NCBI RefSeq assembly: GCF_004010195.1
Contig: NC_057719.1
Location: 18,042,476-18,106,475, forward strand
DNA: 64,000 bases
Reading direction: 5' to 3'
Source of the DNA: Chiloscyllium plagiosum
Lineage: Eukaryota
Shown: positions 16,288 through 49,901 of the stretch, piece by piece
How the letters are laid out: each line of letters starts with the position of its first letter
Numbering within the stretch: the stretch's first letter is position 1
Notes under the pieces: generated by a model
Database searches by the model: none
Seen by the model: the letters and a program-made list of their open reading frames with translations, nothing else
Told to the model about the DNA's origin: nothing
Made by a program: the position numbers and the translations under genes

Positions 16288-16835
16288 ATTTACAGGACAT
16301 TAGTTAGGCCACCTTTGGAATATTGCATGAATTCTGGTCTCCCTCCTATAGGAAGAGGGTGTTGTGAAATTTGAAATAATTCAGAGAAGATTTAGGAGAA
16401 TTATGCCAGGGTTGGAGGAGTTGAGCTAGAGGGAGAGGCTGAATAAGCTGGGGCTATTTTCCCTGGAGCATTGGGGGCAGAGGGGTGACATTATAAAATC
16501 ATGAAGGGCATGAATAGGATAAATTGACAAAGTCTTTACCCTGGATTCTAGAGGAGATAGGTTTAAGATGAGAGGGGAAAGAACTAAAAGGGACCTCAGG
16601 GGCAACATTTTCATGCAAAATGTGGTGCATGTATGGCAGGAGCTGCTAAAGGAAGTGGTGGAGGCTGGTACAATGAAACATTTAAAAGGCGTCTGGATAT
16701 GCATATGAATAGGAAGGGTTTAGACAGATATTGGCCAAATTCTGTCAAATGGAACTAGATTGTGTTAGGATATCTAATCGGCATAGTTGAACTGAAGGGT
16801 CCATTTCTGTGCTGAACATCTCTATGATTCTATGA
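16288..16835 (+). mobile_element. CR1 (HER1-type) 3' fragment
   Basis: YRTLVRPPLEYC... through to the CTCTATGATTCTATGA tail. Confidence 0.9.
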
Positions 16836-21050: not shown

Positions 21051-22496
21051 GTTTTCAGCACAAACAGAAGCTAAAATGACATCCAATTTAAAGTAATTAA
21101 GTATCATTCGAGATAGAACAAAGAACAATACACCTTTCAGCCCTCCAAGCCTGCACTGACACATTTTGACTTACCATACTAAAATTCCACTTATGGGATC
21201 CATATCACCCTATTCCTTTCCTATTCATGTATTCTTCCAGGTGCTTCTTGAATGCTGCTATTGTGTCTCCTTCCCACCATCTCCTCTTGCAGCGCGTTCC
21301 AGGCATTCACCACCCTTGGCGTGAAAAACATGCCTCGCACATCTCTTTTAAATGTGCCCCCCCGAACCTTGAACCTGTGTCTCCTAGTTTCCCTGGGAAA
21401 AAGCCTCATACTTCCCACTCTATCCATGCCATTCACAATCTTATAAACTTCTACCAGGTCGCCCCTCAATGCCCTGCATTCCAGTGAAAAGAAGTCCAGT
21501 CTATCCAACCCTTCTTCATAGTAAAAATCCCCTATACTCGGCAACATCCTGGTGAATCTTTTCTGTGAATCCTCTCCAAAGCATCCATATCTTTCTAGTA
21601 GTGTGGTGACCAGAACTGTACACAATATTCCAAGTGTGGCCTAATTAAAGTTCTATAAAGCTGCAGCATAACTCAATGCCCCTTCAAATGAAGGCAAGAA
21701 TGCCATAGGCCTTTGTTACAACCTTATCTGTCTACACTACTAAGGGATCCTTGGACCAGCACACTCAGATCCCGCTGCATATCAAGGCTCCTAAGGGTTC
21801 TGCTATTCACTGTATAATTTCCATCTGTATTTGACCTTTCAAAATGCATCACCTCACATTTGTTTAGATTAAACTCCGTCTGCCATTTTTCTGCCCATGC
21901 CTCCAACTGATCTATACCCTGCTGTATCCTCTGACAATCCTCCTCATCAATCTTTGCATCATTTGCAAACTTACTAATTAGATCAACTACATTTTCCTCC
22001 AAATCACTTATGTAGACCATGAACAGCAGAGGTCCCAGCACTGATCCCTGTGGAACACCACTAGTCATAGCCCTCCATTCCAAAAAGCATCCTTCCACTA
22101 CTACCCATGACTAAGCCAGTTCTGTATCCATCTTGCCAGCTCACCCTTGATACCATGTGACTTCACCTTTTGTACCAGTCTGCCATGAGGGAACTTGTCA
22201 AAGATTTTGTTGAAGTCCAAGTAGACAACGTCAACCGTTTTTCCCTTATCAATCCTTTACATCACCTCAAACAAGTTAGTGAGGCATGACCTCCCTCCCA
22301 CAATTAAATTCTGCCTATCACTAGTCAGTCTACTTACTTCTAAATGTGTATAGATCTTATCCCTGAGAATCTTTTCCAATAATTTCCCTACCACTGATGT
22401 AACGCTCTCAGGCATGTCACTTCCTGGATTATCACTGTTACCCTTTTAAACAATGGGACAATATTATATATTCTCCAGTTCTCTCTGACCTCACTT

Positions 22497-24110
22497 ACAT
22501 AGAACATAGAACATAGAAGAATACAGCGCAGTACAGGCCCTTCGGCCCTCGATGTTGCGCCGATCCAAGCCCACCTAACCTACACTAGCCCACTATCCTC
22601 CATATGCCTATCCAATGCCCGCTTAAATGCCCATAATGAGGGAGAGTCCACCACTGCTACTGGCAGGGCATTCCATGAACTCACGACTCGCTGAGTAAAG
22701 AACCTACCCCTAACATCTGTCCTATACCTACCCCCCCTTAATTTATAAAGCTATGCCCCCTTGTAATAGCTGACTCCATACGTAGCAAAAGATTCTCACT
22801 GTCGACCCTATCTAAACCCCTAATCATCTTGTACACCTCTATCAAGTAACCCCTACACCTTCTTTTCTCCAATGAAAACAACCCCAAGTGCCTCAGCCTC
22901 TCCTCATACGATCTTNNNNNNNNNNNNNNNNNNNNNNNNNNNNNNNNNNNNNNNNNNNNNNNNNNNNNNNNNNNNNNNNNNNNNNNNNNNNNNNNNNNNN
23001 NNNNNNNNNNNNNNNNNNNNNNNNNNNNNNNNNNNNNNNNNNNNNNNNNNNNNNNNNNNNNNNNNNNNNNNNNNNNNNNNNNNNNNNNNNNNNNNNNNNN
23101 NNNNNNNNNNNNNNNNNNNNNNNNNNNNNNNNNNNNNNNNNNNNNNNNNNNNNNNNNNNNNNNNNNNNNNNNNNNNNNNNNNNNNNNNNNNNNNNNNNNN
23201 NNNNNNNNNNNNNNNNNNNNNNNNNNNNNNNNNNNNNNNNNNNNNNNNNNNNNNNNNNNNNNNNNNNNNNNNNNNNNNNNNNNNNNNNNNNNNNNNNNNN
23301 NNNNNNNNNNNNNNNNNNNNNNNNNNNNNNNNNNNNNNNNNNNNNNNNNNNNNNNNNNNNNNNNNNNNNNNNNNNNNNNNNNNNNNNNNNNNNNNNNNNN
23401 NNNNNNNNNNNNNNNNNNNNNNNNNNNNNNNNNNNNNNNNNNNNNNNNNNNNNNNNNNNNNNNNNNNNNNNNNNNNNNNNNNNNNNNNNNNNNNNNNNNN
23501 NNNNNNNNNNNNNNNNNNNNNNNNNNNNNNNNNNNNNNNNNNNNNNNNNNNNNNNNNNNNNNNNNNNNNNNNNNNNNNNNNNNNNNNNNNNNNNNNNNNN
23601 NNNNNNNNNNNNNNNNNNNNNNNNNNNNNNNNNNNNNNNNNNNNNNNNNNNNNNNNNNNNNNNNNNNNNNNNNNNNNNNNNNNNNNNNNNNNNNNNNNNN
23701 NNNNNNNNNNNNNNNNNNNNNNNNNNNNNNNNNNNNNNNNNNNNNNNNNNNNNNNNNNNNNNNNNNNNNNNNNNNNNNNNNNNNNNNNNNNNNNNNNNNN
23801 NNNNNNNNNNNNNNNNNNNNNNNNNNNNNNNNNNNNNNNNNNNNNNNNNNNNNNNNNNNNCTTCTCTACATGCCTCAAAGCCATCCATTCTACTTAATTG
23901 TGTCTCAGTACTCACATTGACAACAATGTCCTGTTCCTGATTGAATACTGACGAAAAGTATTCATTCAGTGTCTCCCCAATCTCTTCAGCCTCCACACGC
24001 AACTTCCCACTACTATCCTTGACTGGACCTATTCCTACCCTAGTCATTCATTTATTCCTGACATACCTATAGAAAGCCTTAGGGTTTTCCCTAACCCTAC
24101 CAACTAAGGA
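22497..24110 (-). mobile_element. Younger CR1 LINE, nested, spanning the assembly gap
   Basis: (CATAGAA)n tail at 22498-22519 and a CpG-rich 3' end related to 40050-40137. Beyond the gap, GPVKDSSGKLRVEAEEIGETLNEYFSSVF matches ORF2 at 38390-38500. Confidence 0.9.
22916..23860. other. Assembly gap (945 N)
   Basis: Run of N. Confidence 1.
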
Positions 24111-26848: not shown

Positions 26849-27048
26849 GTAGAAAGTGAGGACTGCAGATGCTGGAGATCAGAGTCGAGAGTGTGGTGCT
26901 GGAAAAGCACAACAGGTCAGGCAGCACCCAAGGAGCAGGAGAGTTGACATTTCAGGAATCCTGATGAAGGGCTTATGCCTGAAATCTCTGTTCTCCTCTC
27001 CTGTTGCCTGACCTGCTGTGCTTTTCCAGCACCACACTCTTGACCCCA
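26849..27048. mobile_element. Family A element, fold-back form
   Basis: Reverse arm 26851-26955 is joined to a forward arm starting GAATC-CTGATGA-A-GGGC-TTAT-GCCT-GAAA. TSD TTTATTTTGTTG (26837-26848, 27049-27060). Confidence 0.9.
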
Positions 27049-41780: not shown

Positions 41781-43818
41781 AGACCATGACATTATTTAAG
41801 TGAGGGTCAATCAATTGAGAAAGCTCTTTTATGAAAGCTGTCCACTCAGAGTCTGCCACATCATGCAAAAAACTTGATCAACAACATATTGCACGAGTAG
41901 ACAGCATGGTCCTCTATGACTTTAAAGGGCTCACCCAATACACAGAGGTTAGTTGCAAGTTTGTTGTTTTAGGCTAATGGTTAACCATTGAATGTGTTTG
42001 CTCAATATTTACCAAATGGTTTCCCAGTATGATTGCATTTTAATGTCTCAGATGTCACGTGATAGAGTCATAGAGTCACAGACAAGTACAGCACGGAAAC
42101 AGACTCTTCGGTCCAACTCATCCATGTCAACCAGATATCCTAACCTAATCAAATCCCATTTGTCAGCACTTTGCACATATCCCTCTAAACTCTTCTTATT
42201 CATATACCCATCTAGATGCCTTTTAAATCGTACAACTGTAGTAGTCTTCACCACGTCCTCTGGCAGCTCATCCCATATATGGACCATCCTCTGTGTGCAA
42301 GAGTTTCCTCTTAGGTCCCTTTTATATCTTTCCACTCTCACCCTAAATCTATGCCCTCTTGTTCGGGACTCCCCCACCCCAGGGAAAAGTCTTTGTCTAT
42401 TTATCCTATCCATGCCGCTCATGATTTTGTAAACCTCTATAAGGTCCACCCGCAGCCCCCGACGCTCCAAGAAAAACAGCCCCAGCCTATTCAACCTCTC
42501 CCTGTAGCTCAATTCCTCCAACCCTGACAACATCCTTGTAAATTCTTTCTGAACCCTTTTAAGTTTCACAACATCCTTCCGATAGGAAGGAGACCAGAAT
42601 TGCACGCTATTCCAAAAGTGGCCTAACCAATGTCCTGTACAGCCACAACTTGACCTCCTAATTCCTATACTCAATGCTCTGACCAATAAAGGAAAGCATA
42701 CCCAACGCCCTCTTCACTGTCCTGTCTACCTATGACTCTACTTTCAAGGAGCTATGAACCTGCATTCCAAGGTCCTTTGTTCAGCAAAACCCCCAAAGAC
42801 GTTACCACTAAGTGTAGAAGTCCTGATCTGATTTTGCTTTTCCAAAATGCAGCACCTCACATTTATCTAAATTAAACTCTATCTGCCACTTCTCAGCCCA
42901 TTGGCCCACCTGATCAAGGTCCCGTTGTGCTCTGAGGTAACCTTCTTTGCTAACCATTAGACCTCCAATTTTGGTGTCATCTGCAAATTTACTAACTATA
43001 CTTCTTATGTTCACATTCAAATCATTTATATAAATGACAAAAAGTAGAGGACCCAACACTGATCCTTTTGGCACTCCACTGGTCACGGGCCTCCAGTCTG
43101 AAAAGCTCTCCACCACCACCACCTCTTCTACCTTTGAGCCAGTTCTATATCCAAATGGCTAGTTGTCCCTGTATTCCATGAGACCTAACCTTGCTAACCA
43201 GTCTCCCATGGGGAACCTTGTTGAACGCCTTACTGAAGTCTATATAGATCACATCTACCATTCTGGCCTTGTCAATCCTCTTTATTACTTCCTCAAAAAA
43301 CTCAATCAAGTTTGTGAGACATGATTTCCAATGCATAAAGCCATGTTGACTACCCCTAATCAGTCCTTGCTTTTCCAAATACATGTAAATCCTCTCTCTT
43401 AGGATTCCCTCCAACAACTTGTCCACCACCGACATCAGGCTCACTGGTCTATAGTTCCCTGGTTCTTCCTTACCACTTTTTAAATAGTGGCACCACGGTA
43501 GCCAACCTGCAGTCTTCCAGCACCTCACCTGTGACTATCAATTAACAAATATCTCTGTAAGAGGTCTAGCAATCACTTCCCTAGCTTCCCACAGTGTTCT
43601 CAGGTACACCCAATCAGGTCCACTTTTATGCATTTCAATACATCCAGCATCTCCTCCTCTGTAATATGGACATTTTTCAAGAGTTCACCATCTATTTCCC
43701 TACATTCTATATCTTCCATGCCCTTTTTCACAGTAAATACTTATGCAAAATACTCATTTAGTATCTCCCCCATCTCCTGTGGCTCCACACAAAGGCCGCC
43801 TTGCTGATCTTTGAGGGG

Positions 43819-43910
43819 ATTCTGGATCAGTGGTGCTGGAAGAGCACAGCAATTCAGACAGCATCCGATGAGCAGGAAAATCGACGTTTCAGGCAAAAGC
43901 CCTTCATCAG
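43819..43910 (-). mobile_element. 92-bp family A element inserted in CR1 ORF2
   Basis: Perfect 13-bp TSD GATCTTTGAGGGG (43806-43818, 43911-43923). Explains the foreign peptide PDEGLLPETSIF...LIQN between two PLKD copies in ORF 43741-44196. Confidence 0.95.
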
Positions 43911-43916
43911 GATCTT
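43877..43916 (-). ncRNA. Putative minimal type I hammerhead ribozyme (family A, best-preserved copy)
   Basis: AAGAUC-CUGAUGA-A-GGGC-uuuu-GCCU-GAAA-C-GUC/GAUUUU. All core nucleotides and a GUC triplet present; 6-bp helix I with one G-U; palindromic helix III ACGU. Confidence 0.75.
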
Positions 43917-45645
43917 TGAGGGGCCCCATTCTCTCCCTAGTTACCCTTTTGCCCTTCATGTATTTATAAAAACTCTTTGGAATCTCCTTAACCCTATTTG
44001 CCAAAGCTGTCTCATGTCCTCTTTTTGCCCTTCTGATTTCCCTCTTAAGTATACTCCTACTGCATTTATACTCTTCTAAGGATTCTCTTGATCTCTCCTG
44101 TCTATACCTGACATATGCTTCCTTCTTTTTGTTAACCAAAACCTCAATTTCTCTAGTCATCCAGCATTCCCTACAACTACCAGACTTTCCTTTCACACTA
44201 ACAAGAATATACTGTCTCTAGACTCTTGTGATCTCTTTTCTGAAGGCTTCTCATTGTTCAGCCCTCCCTTTACCTGCGAACATCTGCCCCCAGTCAGCTT
44301 TTGAAAGTTCTTGCATAATACTGTCAAAATTAGCCTTCCTCCTATTTAGAACTTCAACTTTTAGATCTGGTTCATCCTTTTCCATCACTATTTTAAAACT
44401 AATATAACTATGGTCATTGGTCCCAAAGTGCTCCCCCACTGACACCTCAGTCACCTGCCCTGCCTTATTTCCCAAGAGTAGGTCAAGTTTTGCACCTTCT
44501 CTCGTAGGTACATCCACATACTGAATCAGAAAGTTTTCTTGTACACACAACACATTTCTCTCCGTCTAAACCCTTAACACTATGGCAGTCCCAGTCTATG
44601 TTTGGAAAGTTAAAATCCCCTACTAGAACCACCCTATTATTCTTACAGATAATTGAAATTTCCTTGCAAATTTGTTTCTCAATTTCCCGCTGACTATTAG
44701 AGGGTCTATAATACAATCCCAATCAGGTGATCATCCCTTTCTTATTTCTCAGTTCCACCCAAATAACTTCCCTGGATGTATTCCCAGGAATATCCTCCCT
44801 AAGTACAGCAGTAATGCTGTCTCTTATCAAAAACGCTACCTCTCTCCTGCCCACCCCACCCCACCCCACCCCACCCCTCCCTGTCTATCCTGGAGCATTA
44901 ATATCCTGAAACATTAAGCTGCCAGTTTTGGTCAAACCTGAGCCATGTTTCTGCAATTGCTATGATATTCCAGTCCCATATTCCTATCCATGCCCTGAGT
45001 TGCTTGAGATTCTACAGATCTGGTCAGCTTAGAATATTTCCCATGAGTCATTTATCTTATCCCCAATACACATTTAGCCCTAAAATGTAATCACCACACT
45101 TACCTACTTCCATCTTCACCCTAGCCGATCAGCCCTTCACTTTAGTTGAAATATAATCACAGTACCAAACCCAGAGGCAAAATTAAATTTATTGAAAAAG
45201 CAAAGTCCATCTTTTTCTAATATTTAATAGAAATGGTTATGAATTGCTCTTGTACAATCTCTTGGTGCCTATCGTCTGCACTTGTTTCCCATTCTACTAT
45301 TCCTATAAAGTGTTGCCCCAATGACTATAACTGATTATTTCCTCTAAGGGCAGTTCAGTGGCCTTACTGGGTGTCTGTATGCAGCTGAGGACCTTGAGAA
45401 CTGACCTTAAATTGTGGTATGGTAACACTGTTTAAGTAGGTACTGGTTCTGGTGGGCAAAGGGATGGTTGTCATCCCAAGGAAATATTCTCCAGGCGTTG
45501 CAATCAAAGTCACTTTGCCGGAACTGACCTTCACATTTGCAGAGATTCAGGATAAAGTGTCAACACTGACCCCAGAATGAAGCTAATTGAGCAATGGTGT
45601 GAACTGTTATGGAAGTTTCCAACTAATTAGGTGCTCTCTACATTT

Positions 45646-45838
45646 GCATCAAAAAGTGTGGTGCTGGAAAAGCACAGCTGGTCAGGCAGCATGCGAGGAG
45701 CACATTCCTGATGAAGAGCTTACATTCAAACCATCAACTCTCCTGCTTCTCAGATGCTGCCTGACCGGTTGTGTTTTTCCAGCACCACACTTTTTGACTC
45801 TGATCTCCAGCATCTGCAGTCCTCACTTTCCCCTACTG
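45646..45838. mobile_element. Family A element, fold-back form
   Basis: Reverse arm 45649-45711, then CACATTC-CTGATGA (helix II eroded) and the full body. TSD TCTACATTT (45637-45645, 45839-45847). Confidence 0.85.
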
Positions 45839-49719: not shown

Positions 49720-49901
49720 GAGCTGAAAAATGTGTTGCTGGAAAAGCGCAGTAGGTCAGGCAGCATCCAAGGAGCAGGAGAATCGACGTTTCGGGCATAA
49801 GCCCTTCCTGCTCCTTGGATGCTGCCTGACCTGCTGCACTTTTCCAACAACACATTTTTCAGCTCTGATCTCCAGAATCTGCAGTCCTCACTTTCTCCCA
49901 G
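49720..49901. mobile_element. Family A element, fold-back form
   Basis: Arms 49717-49780 and 49806-49868 are near-perfect reverse complements. The loop holds the hammerhead 3' half (minus: GGGC-TTAT-GCCC-GAAACGTC). Perfect 13-bp TSD GAGGAAATGGTCA (49707-49719, 49902-49914). Confidence 0.9.

Follow-up and report, generated by a model that had tools for sequence, protein, structure and literature searches.

The window, by which we mean the whole 64,000-nucleotide stretch of Chiloscyllium plagiosum DNA that was analysed, carries on its minus strand a LINE (42061-45001) into which a second, much shorter element has been inserted. The host LINE, which we take to be a CR1, has several broken reading frames, is 82-93% identical to its paralogues and has a short 8-nt repeat at its 3' end. 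Fragments of reverse transcriptase (RVT_1, E about 1e-12) and of an AP-endonuclease (E 5e-6, just under the cut-off) lie in separate frames, which marks the host as a broken LINE. Read along the minus strand, the order is host LINE, a 13-bp block (43923-43911), a 92-bp insert (43910-43819), the block again (43818-43806) and host LINE once more. The two blocks are identical and make up an exact target-site duplication. A search of the shark's own genome with the upstream flank found 40 places, and the 20 that were fetched comprise this locus and 19 paralogues (L032-L050). In 19 of 19 paralogous LINE loci the site is empty, with the block present once and the host sequence running on uninterrupted, and this single block without an insert establishes both the duplication and the order of events, namely insertion into a pre-existing site. 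The original prediction of a 92-bp insertion with a 13-bp duplication is thereby confirmed, as is its sense orientation relative to the host, with LINE and motif both on the minus strand. That the element starts exactly at CUGAUGA, as was also claimed, is more than the sequence can settle: the boundary is ambiguous over 43910-43912, because the family's own bases at -2 and -1 (T, C) match the last two bases of the duplication. One further base (43818), the first of the downstream duplication copy, is common to element and host at the 3' junction and doubles as the element's next base. Between 43741 and 44217 on the minus strand, insert and duplication together amount to 105 nt (35 codons) and the LINE frame stays open with no stop; this is probably chance, the host being broken elsewhere.

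The insert opens with a hammerhead motif. On the minus strand, its parts are the core box CUGAUGA (43904-43910), followed by one extra A (43903) in the pattern given in the part of PMC4209133 consulted; a helix II of 4 bp with a 4-nt loop (43891-43902) closed by a G-U pair; GAAA, a palindromic ACGU without a helix III loop and C17 (43883-43890), with the cut predicted between 43883 and 43882; and an element-derived 3' strand of helix I, GA and then four U's (43877-43882). In the predicted helix I, the 5' strand is made up of the last six nucleotides of the upstream duplication copy (43911-43923); the helix has six pairs between AAGAUC and GAUUUU (43916-43911 with 43882-43877), five Watson-Crick and one G-U. 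Our reading of the motif agrees with the earlier one on CUGAUGA, the G-U-closed helix II and the cut between 43883 and 43882, and has GAAA-CG-UC after helix II. The core had also been called intact, which is correct for the CUGAUGA, GAAA and ACGU boxes but not for the G-U, which falls on the conserved G10.1-C11.1 pair and departs from the family pattern. Position 11.1 (43891) is a U where the family has C (118 of 133 cores), and helix II comes to -4.8 versus -6.5 kcal/mol. The site of the G-U reads CG in 112 of those 133 cores and TG in 14; the U likely stems from CpG decay, and this copy is a decayed family member. Relative to the majority base in 57 young copies, it differs at three positions, +19, +34 and +52 (C3 = 0).

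Measured against the minimal hammerhead, the locus has the CUGANGA, GAAA and UH boxes, the extra base after A9 and the palindromic 15.2-16.2 (ACGU) for a dimer helix III, whereas the G10.1-C11.1 pair is present in the family and absent from this copy (G-U). The features of a canonical type I hammerhead active as a monomer are absent, there being no helix III loop and no Rfam match; even at E values as high as 10, the Rfam search gave no hammerhead match. We class the motif as a minimal hammerhead of dimer type and of the metazoan Penelope-like kind. Among the 11 copies in the window with a readable core region, it is the only one with core, helix II and ACGU all intact, and to that extent it is the window's best candidate for a ribozyme, as had been proposed; better cores nonetheless number about 37 per Mb (28 in 765 kb). 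In random sequence (133 copies) the core is intact in 30, of which 28 keep G10.1-C11.1. When 14 diverse copies were aligned, a set that includes this locus and from whose sequences the structure had been named, pairing was 94.6% in helix II, where one pair had changes in both strands, and 73% in helix I, whose third pair was broken in 12 of 14.

The closest genomic relatives of the insert are 96-98% identical to it and have different flanks, and many relatives reach upstream into a frame that ends in a GIY-YIG-type region. In L265 and L266, reverse transcriptase motifs and then GIY-YIG lie in one frame upstream of the same hammerhead motif. Pfam scored GIY-YIG at 23.0, 22.5 and 19.8 bits in three proteins against a cut-off of 22.6, which L265 (23.0) passes, and the RVT_1 match of the parent is weak (E 0.022). 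The link from parent to motif runs through L015, L025 and L029; no intact full-length parent frame was recovered among the longer family loci. The 3' ends are bimodal, with 37 of 97 young arms ending at +89..+93 and 41 at +125 (C3 = 0), and these classes about 34 nt apart point to an optional tail that is present in the family and missing from this copy. An optional tail is tied to two RT start sites in the part of PMC11167929 consulted. An inverted arm, which the consulted portions of PMC3846280 and PMC8557442 give as a known Penelope trait, is found in 32 of 85 young events (counted per event). By its sequence relationships, the insert is a truncated copy of an EN+ Penelope-like element, a 5'-truncated, tail-less 3' fragment (pLTR) at 43819-43910 on the minus strand. 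In a sample of eighty 10-kb stretches taken at even spacing, with 765 kb of called bases, there were 133 copies, or about 170 per Mb, a density that extrapolates to several hundred thousand stubs genome-wide and some 600,000 copies. Such a copy number, together with a short discrete size, would also suit an insert templated by RNA that the ribozyme had cleaved, or else an independent element of SINE or retrozyme type in place of a truncated Penelope copy, and retrozymes do derive from pLTRs according to the portion of bioRxiv 10.64898/2026.07.22.740005 consulted. We give that origin practically no credence, since this copy spans the cut site, the upstream extents run continuously into the GIY-YIG frame, and the locus is a solo copy, not a tandem array. 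Nor do 5' ends pile up at the cleavage site, where just 4 of 146 random or window copies start (+26..+30).

Several other features of the window were recorded along the way. Older-subfamily stubs of the same element, inverted head to head, lie at 26861-27035, 45658-45821 and 49732-49886 and cause weak Rfam matches to microRNA families. A long near-perfect inverted repeat with an AT-rich centre at 54005-54103 matches a microRNA model at 57.6 bits (gathering score 90) and does not belong to the Penelope family by BLAST. The stretch at 16341-16392 weakly matches the front half of U6 snRNA (22.7 bits, E 0.28) and is possibly a fragment of a retrocopy. At 22001-24000, G+C falls to 0.23 with a GC skew of -0.39, and no tandem repeat was called.

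The original prediction has the target site supply the upstream helix I strand. Whose bases form the helix was assessed over 248 copies, some from random loci and others selected by search, in which a CUGANGA start could be read; the start is preceded by native upstream sequence in 95, an inverted arm in 89, a gap in 4 and host flank in 60. The 95 native copies have C at -1 in 91, T at -2 in 93, T at -3 in 92 and A at -4 in 89; the family's native helix I thus reads C-G, U-A, mismatch, A-U and has just two contiguous pairs in 78 of the 95. Here, the six-pair match is real, but its inner two pairs are native, as 43912-43911 (TC) equal the element's own bases, and the host alone accounts only for 43916-43913, the four outer pairs. 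Opposite these host bases stand four U's, with which any purine can pair; purines make up 64% of the host strand, and within 500 nt on either side four purines precede 9 of 26 TC sites. We consider the four outer pairs likely to be chance. The stronger statement that the junction rebuilt a complete fold goes too far, because the motif has no helix III and so needs a dimer partner, and a directed rebuilding of helix I is not supported.

Whether flanks complementary to the post-GUC strand are over-represented, part of the refuting test that the original prediction set itself, was addressed with the host-flank copies. Seven of the 60 were dropped as element-derived (L011, L244, L248 twice, L217, L213 and L253), and the four positions outside the native match were scored for pairing and compared with control flanks from the same copy giving the same junction. 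In this small sample of 53 copies, 22 of them with junctions within 3 nt, the result was null: 98 of 212 cells paired versus 91.4±6.3 in the junction-matched controls (p 0.16), or 94 of 208 versus 88.4 (p 0.20) once this locus was removed. At least 6 bp were found in 2 of 53 copies versus 1.4 expected and at least 4 bp in 7 versus 5.0 (p 0.09), and control flanks from this LINE itself gave 6 bp at 14 of 36 overlapping positions. A weak bias towards flank pairing is possible, given that every statistic leans slightly positive. An unconditioned flank control (p 0.048) was biased, its first non-native base being forced towards purine, and was replaced by the junction-matched one. These numbers bear on a mechanism in which the 3' end of the target pairs at insertion with the RNA after GUC, so that flanks able to complete helix I are favored. 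The 6-bp match at this locus, the slight and non-significant family excess and a purine at -3 in 5 of 5 clean junctions at -2 are all in its favor; yet priming there would, we infer, copy the core as an inverted arm, which is absent at the locus, and the flank test found no significant excess, so that we regard this mechanism as very unlikely.

Helix I and its surroundings vary elsewhere in the family. In a distant subfamily, L248 (9495, 9718) has a fully paired 4-bp helix I; the upstream sequence differs in this subfamily (L248 at 9495 and 9718, L244). A distal extension of helix I in native copies was tried and rejected, as cognate pairs showed no folding advantage over swapped ones (8 types, p 0.42; 13 representatives, p 0.17). 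The 5-8 bases that follow the helix I 3' strand, at about +34..+41, vary strongly among otherwise near-identical young subfamilies (L263, L264, L267, L268, L275, L276 and L278). Several of these variants could pair with segments within -31..-16; swapping the +34..+41 variants against -31..-16 revealed no significant cognate pairing.

The 5' junction has 2 nt of microhomology (43912-43911). Across the family, duplications of 8-14 nt fix the host end in 16 of 53 direct copies, and in 8 of these 16 the duplication shares 2 nt or more with the element's own sequence, versus 16-26% expected (p 0.001-0.03, depending on the assumed match rate; 7 of 15 without this locus, p 0.005-0.06). The proposal that the junction formed by microhomology is therefore fairly supported. 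For the young subfamily, every exact match (91) to a pattern whose first base is +20 was listed, and 5' ends per base and copy come to 0.004 at +11..+20, 0.023 at +1..+10, 0.043 at -9..0 and 0 at -19..-10. Among 31 direct insertions, 16 have their 5' ends in -9..+10 and none in -29..-10 (p 3e-5). Because 5' ends pile up at -9..+10, a start at CUGAUGA is the family's commonest outcome. The sharp upstream edge of the pile-up can be seen, for example, in L002, L017, L020, L023, L027, L130 and L157 and in inverted copies. The pile-up may mark the start of the template RNA, an RT stop or an endonuclease cut. Around -4 the sequence fits an initiator consensus. In Drosophila Penelope an internal promoter lies within the pLTR, as stated in the consulted parts of PMC2377424 and PMC8557442. 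These two points lead us to prefer a transcription start, a guess that could as easily prove wrong as right. Its rivals are a stop of the RT or endonuclease cleavage at ATT, which PMC11167929, as far as consulted, gives as the motif that is cut. An upstream hairpin at about -20..-7 was considered as an RT block and rejected, being only 69% paired.

In a 54-nt piece, the helix I pair probability is 0.86-0.92 here versus at most 0.03 for a native copy, so this copy's helix is predicted to be the stronger one. The probability in longer contexts is 0.24 (70 nt), 0.33 (165 nt) and 0.07 (350 nt). As a monomer, the RNA is more stable by 2.2 kcal/mol (-11.3 versus -9.1) as a rod in which the core is buried by pairing with CGUC, a preference shared by the native copy, and the ACGU dimer helix is worth only -1.7 kcal/mol, all in nearest-neighbor energies that ignore tertiary contacts in the core. 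In a two-copy cofold, helices I and II form partly between strands. The local fold has no extra stability relative to shuffles (z +1.03, -1.03, -0.27 and +1.49). The motif at the locus is likely inactive or very slow. In the part of PMC4209133 consulted, single minimal hammerheads did not cleave, dimers cleaved weakly and G10.1-C11.1 is listed as highly conserved; the anole motif needed protein (PMC11167929, as far as consulted), and the consulted part of PMC544870 gives no rate for G10.1-U11.1. A comparison with three sets of contigs and with 2% of a single-cell run yielded only family or paralogue reads; none of the listed pieces spanned a junction and read starts did not pile up, and this check is uninformative on expression and on presence in other individuals.

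The strong form of the original prediction is that the host strand completes the fold and yields a working ribozyme in read-through RNA, acting as a trans-dimer with other family transcripts. Six contiguous helix I pairs versus two in 78 of 95 native copies, the high probability of the helix in the short piece, and the intact core boxes and ACGU speak for it, and family-like reads in an RNA run mean that partners may exist. Against these stand the U at 11.1, which breaks the conserved G10.1-C11.1 pair, the fall of helix I probability in the 70-, 165- and 350-nt contexts, the broken host LINE and the window's lack of a second intact copy, and we judge a working ribozyme here to be improbable. 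As a separate observation, L180 (2796-3747; G000:C37, about 25.712 Mb) contains a 277-bp unit repeated 3.4 times at 97% identity. Each unit consists of one Penelope stub and a CA-rich flank, giving three same-strand tandem hammerhead motifs with a G-U in helix II of each. Either L180 is a better dimer candidate than the 43819-43910 locus or it is an assembly artefact.

The reading that we prefer, and hold to be very probable, is that of a 92-bp Penelope-like 3' stub in an older broken LINE, with a helix I that likely consists of two native pairs and four chance ones. In this scenario, the element's endonuclease would have nicked the LINE, and reverse transcription would have set off from +91/92, the first of two start sites used by the family, leaving out the 34-nt tail. 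Since the copy continues past the cleavage site, it was likely made on uncut RNA. The cDNA would have ended just upstream of CUGAUGA, as in most family copies, and would have been joined to the target via the 2-nt overlap. A broader idea builds on the pile-up, which falls inside the helix I 5' strand and possibly reflects an RNA start at the initiator-like site. Host DNA would then supply that strand in many of the approximately 600,000 copies, and a chance subset including this locus would gain a stronger helix I and cleave host read-through RNA as trans-dimers. We doubt that this is so; if true, it would amount to a genome-wide lottery of host-completed ribozymes. The single locus matters little, being by extrapolation one of several hundred thousand Penelope stubs. 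It does offer a natural construct for asking if minimal hammerheads of the dimer type, which are poor cleavers in vitro, can be rescued by strengthening helix I, and the 5'-end pile-up bears on where Penelope template RNA starts and how cDNA synthesis ends.

The comparisons with known systems that follow are drawn from the consulted portions of each source. The closest counterpart is the type I minimal hammerhead of metazoan Penelope-like elements (Cervera & de la Pena 2014, PMC4209133), which shares CUGANGA, the extra base between 9 and 10.1, a palindromic 15.2-16.2 without loop 3 and a short helix I, and which occurs mostly as solitary motifs from truncated elements. The locus differs in having G10.1-U11.1 rather than G-C, a 4-bp helix II and target-derived outer pairs in helix I, and the family differs in a native helix I of only C-G, U-A, mismatch and A-U. 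No paper linking helix I of this hammerhead with target-site microhomology was found in our literature search. Poseidon of the green anole (Frangieh et al. 2024, PMC11167929) likewise has 3' end classes about 34 nt apart (tail), uncut-RNA templates and a hammerhead in the pLTR. Its ORF starts inside the hammerhead, whereas the shark family's ATG at +3 meets a stop, and in contrast to Poseidon the target at the 3' junction here is not AT-rich. Non-LTR retrozymes (bioRxiv 10.64898/2026.07.22.740005) are also non-coding and carry a type I hammerhead related to pLTRs, but they are tandem arrays with at least two complete motifs, and this locus is a solo truncated copy with a duplication. Insertions of EN+ Penelope-like elements (Arkhipova 2013, PMC3846280; Craig 2021, PMC8557442) resemble the present case in 5' truncation, microhomology at 5' junctions, head-to-head inversions in sister copies and a non-LTR element as target. 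Duplications in the shark family are 8-14 bp versus 8-10 bp in the known EN+ examples, and the shark family's sharp pile-up of 5' ends at the front edge of the hammerhead goes unmentioned in those two papers as far as consulted.
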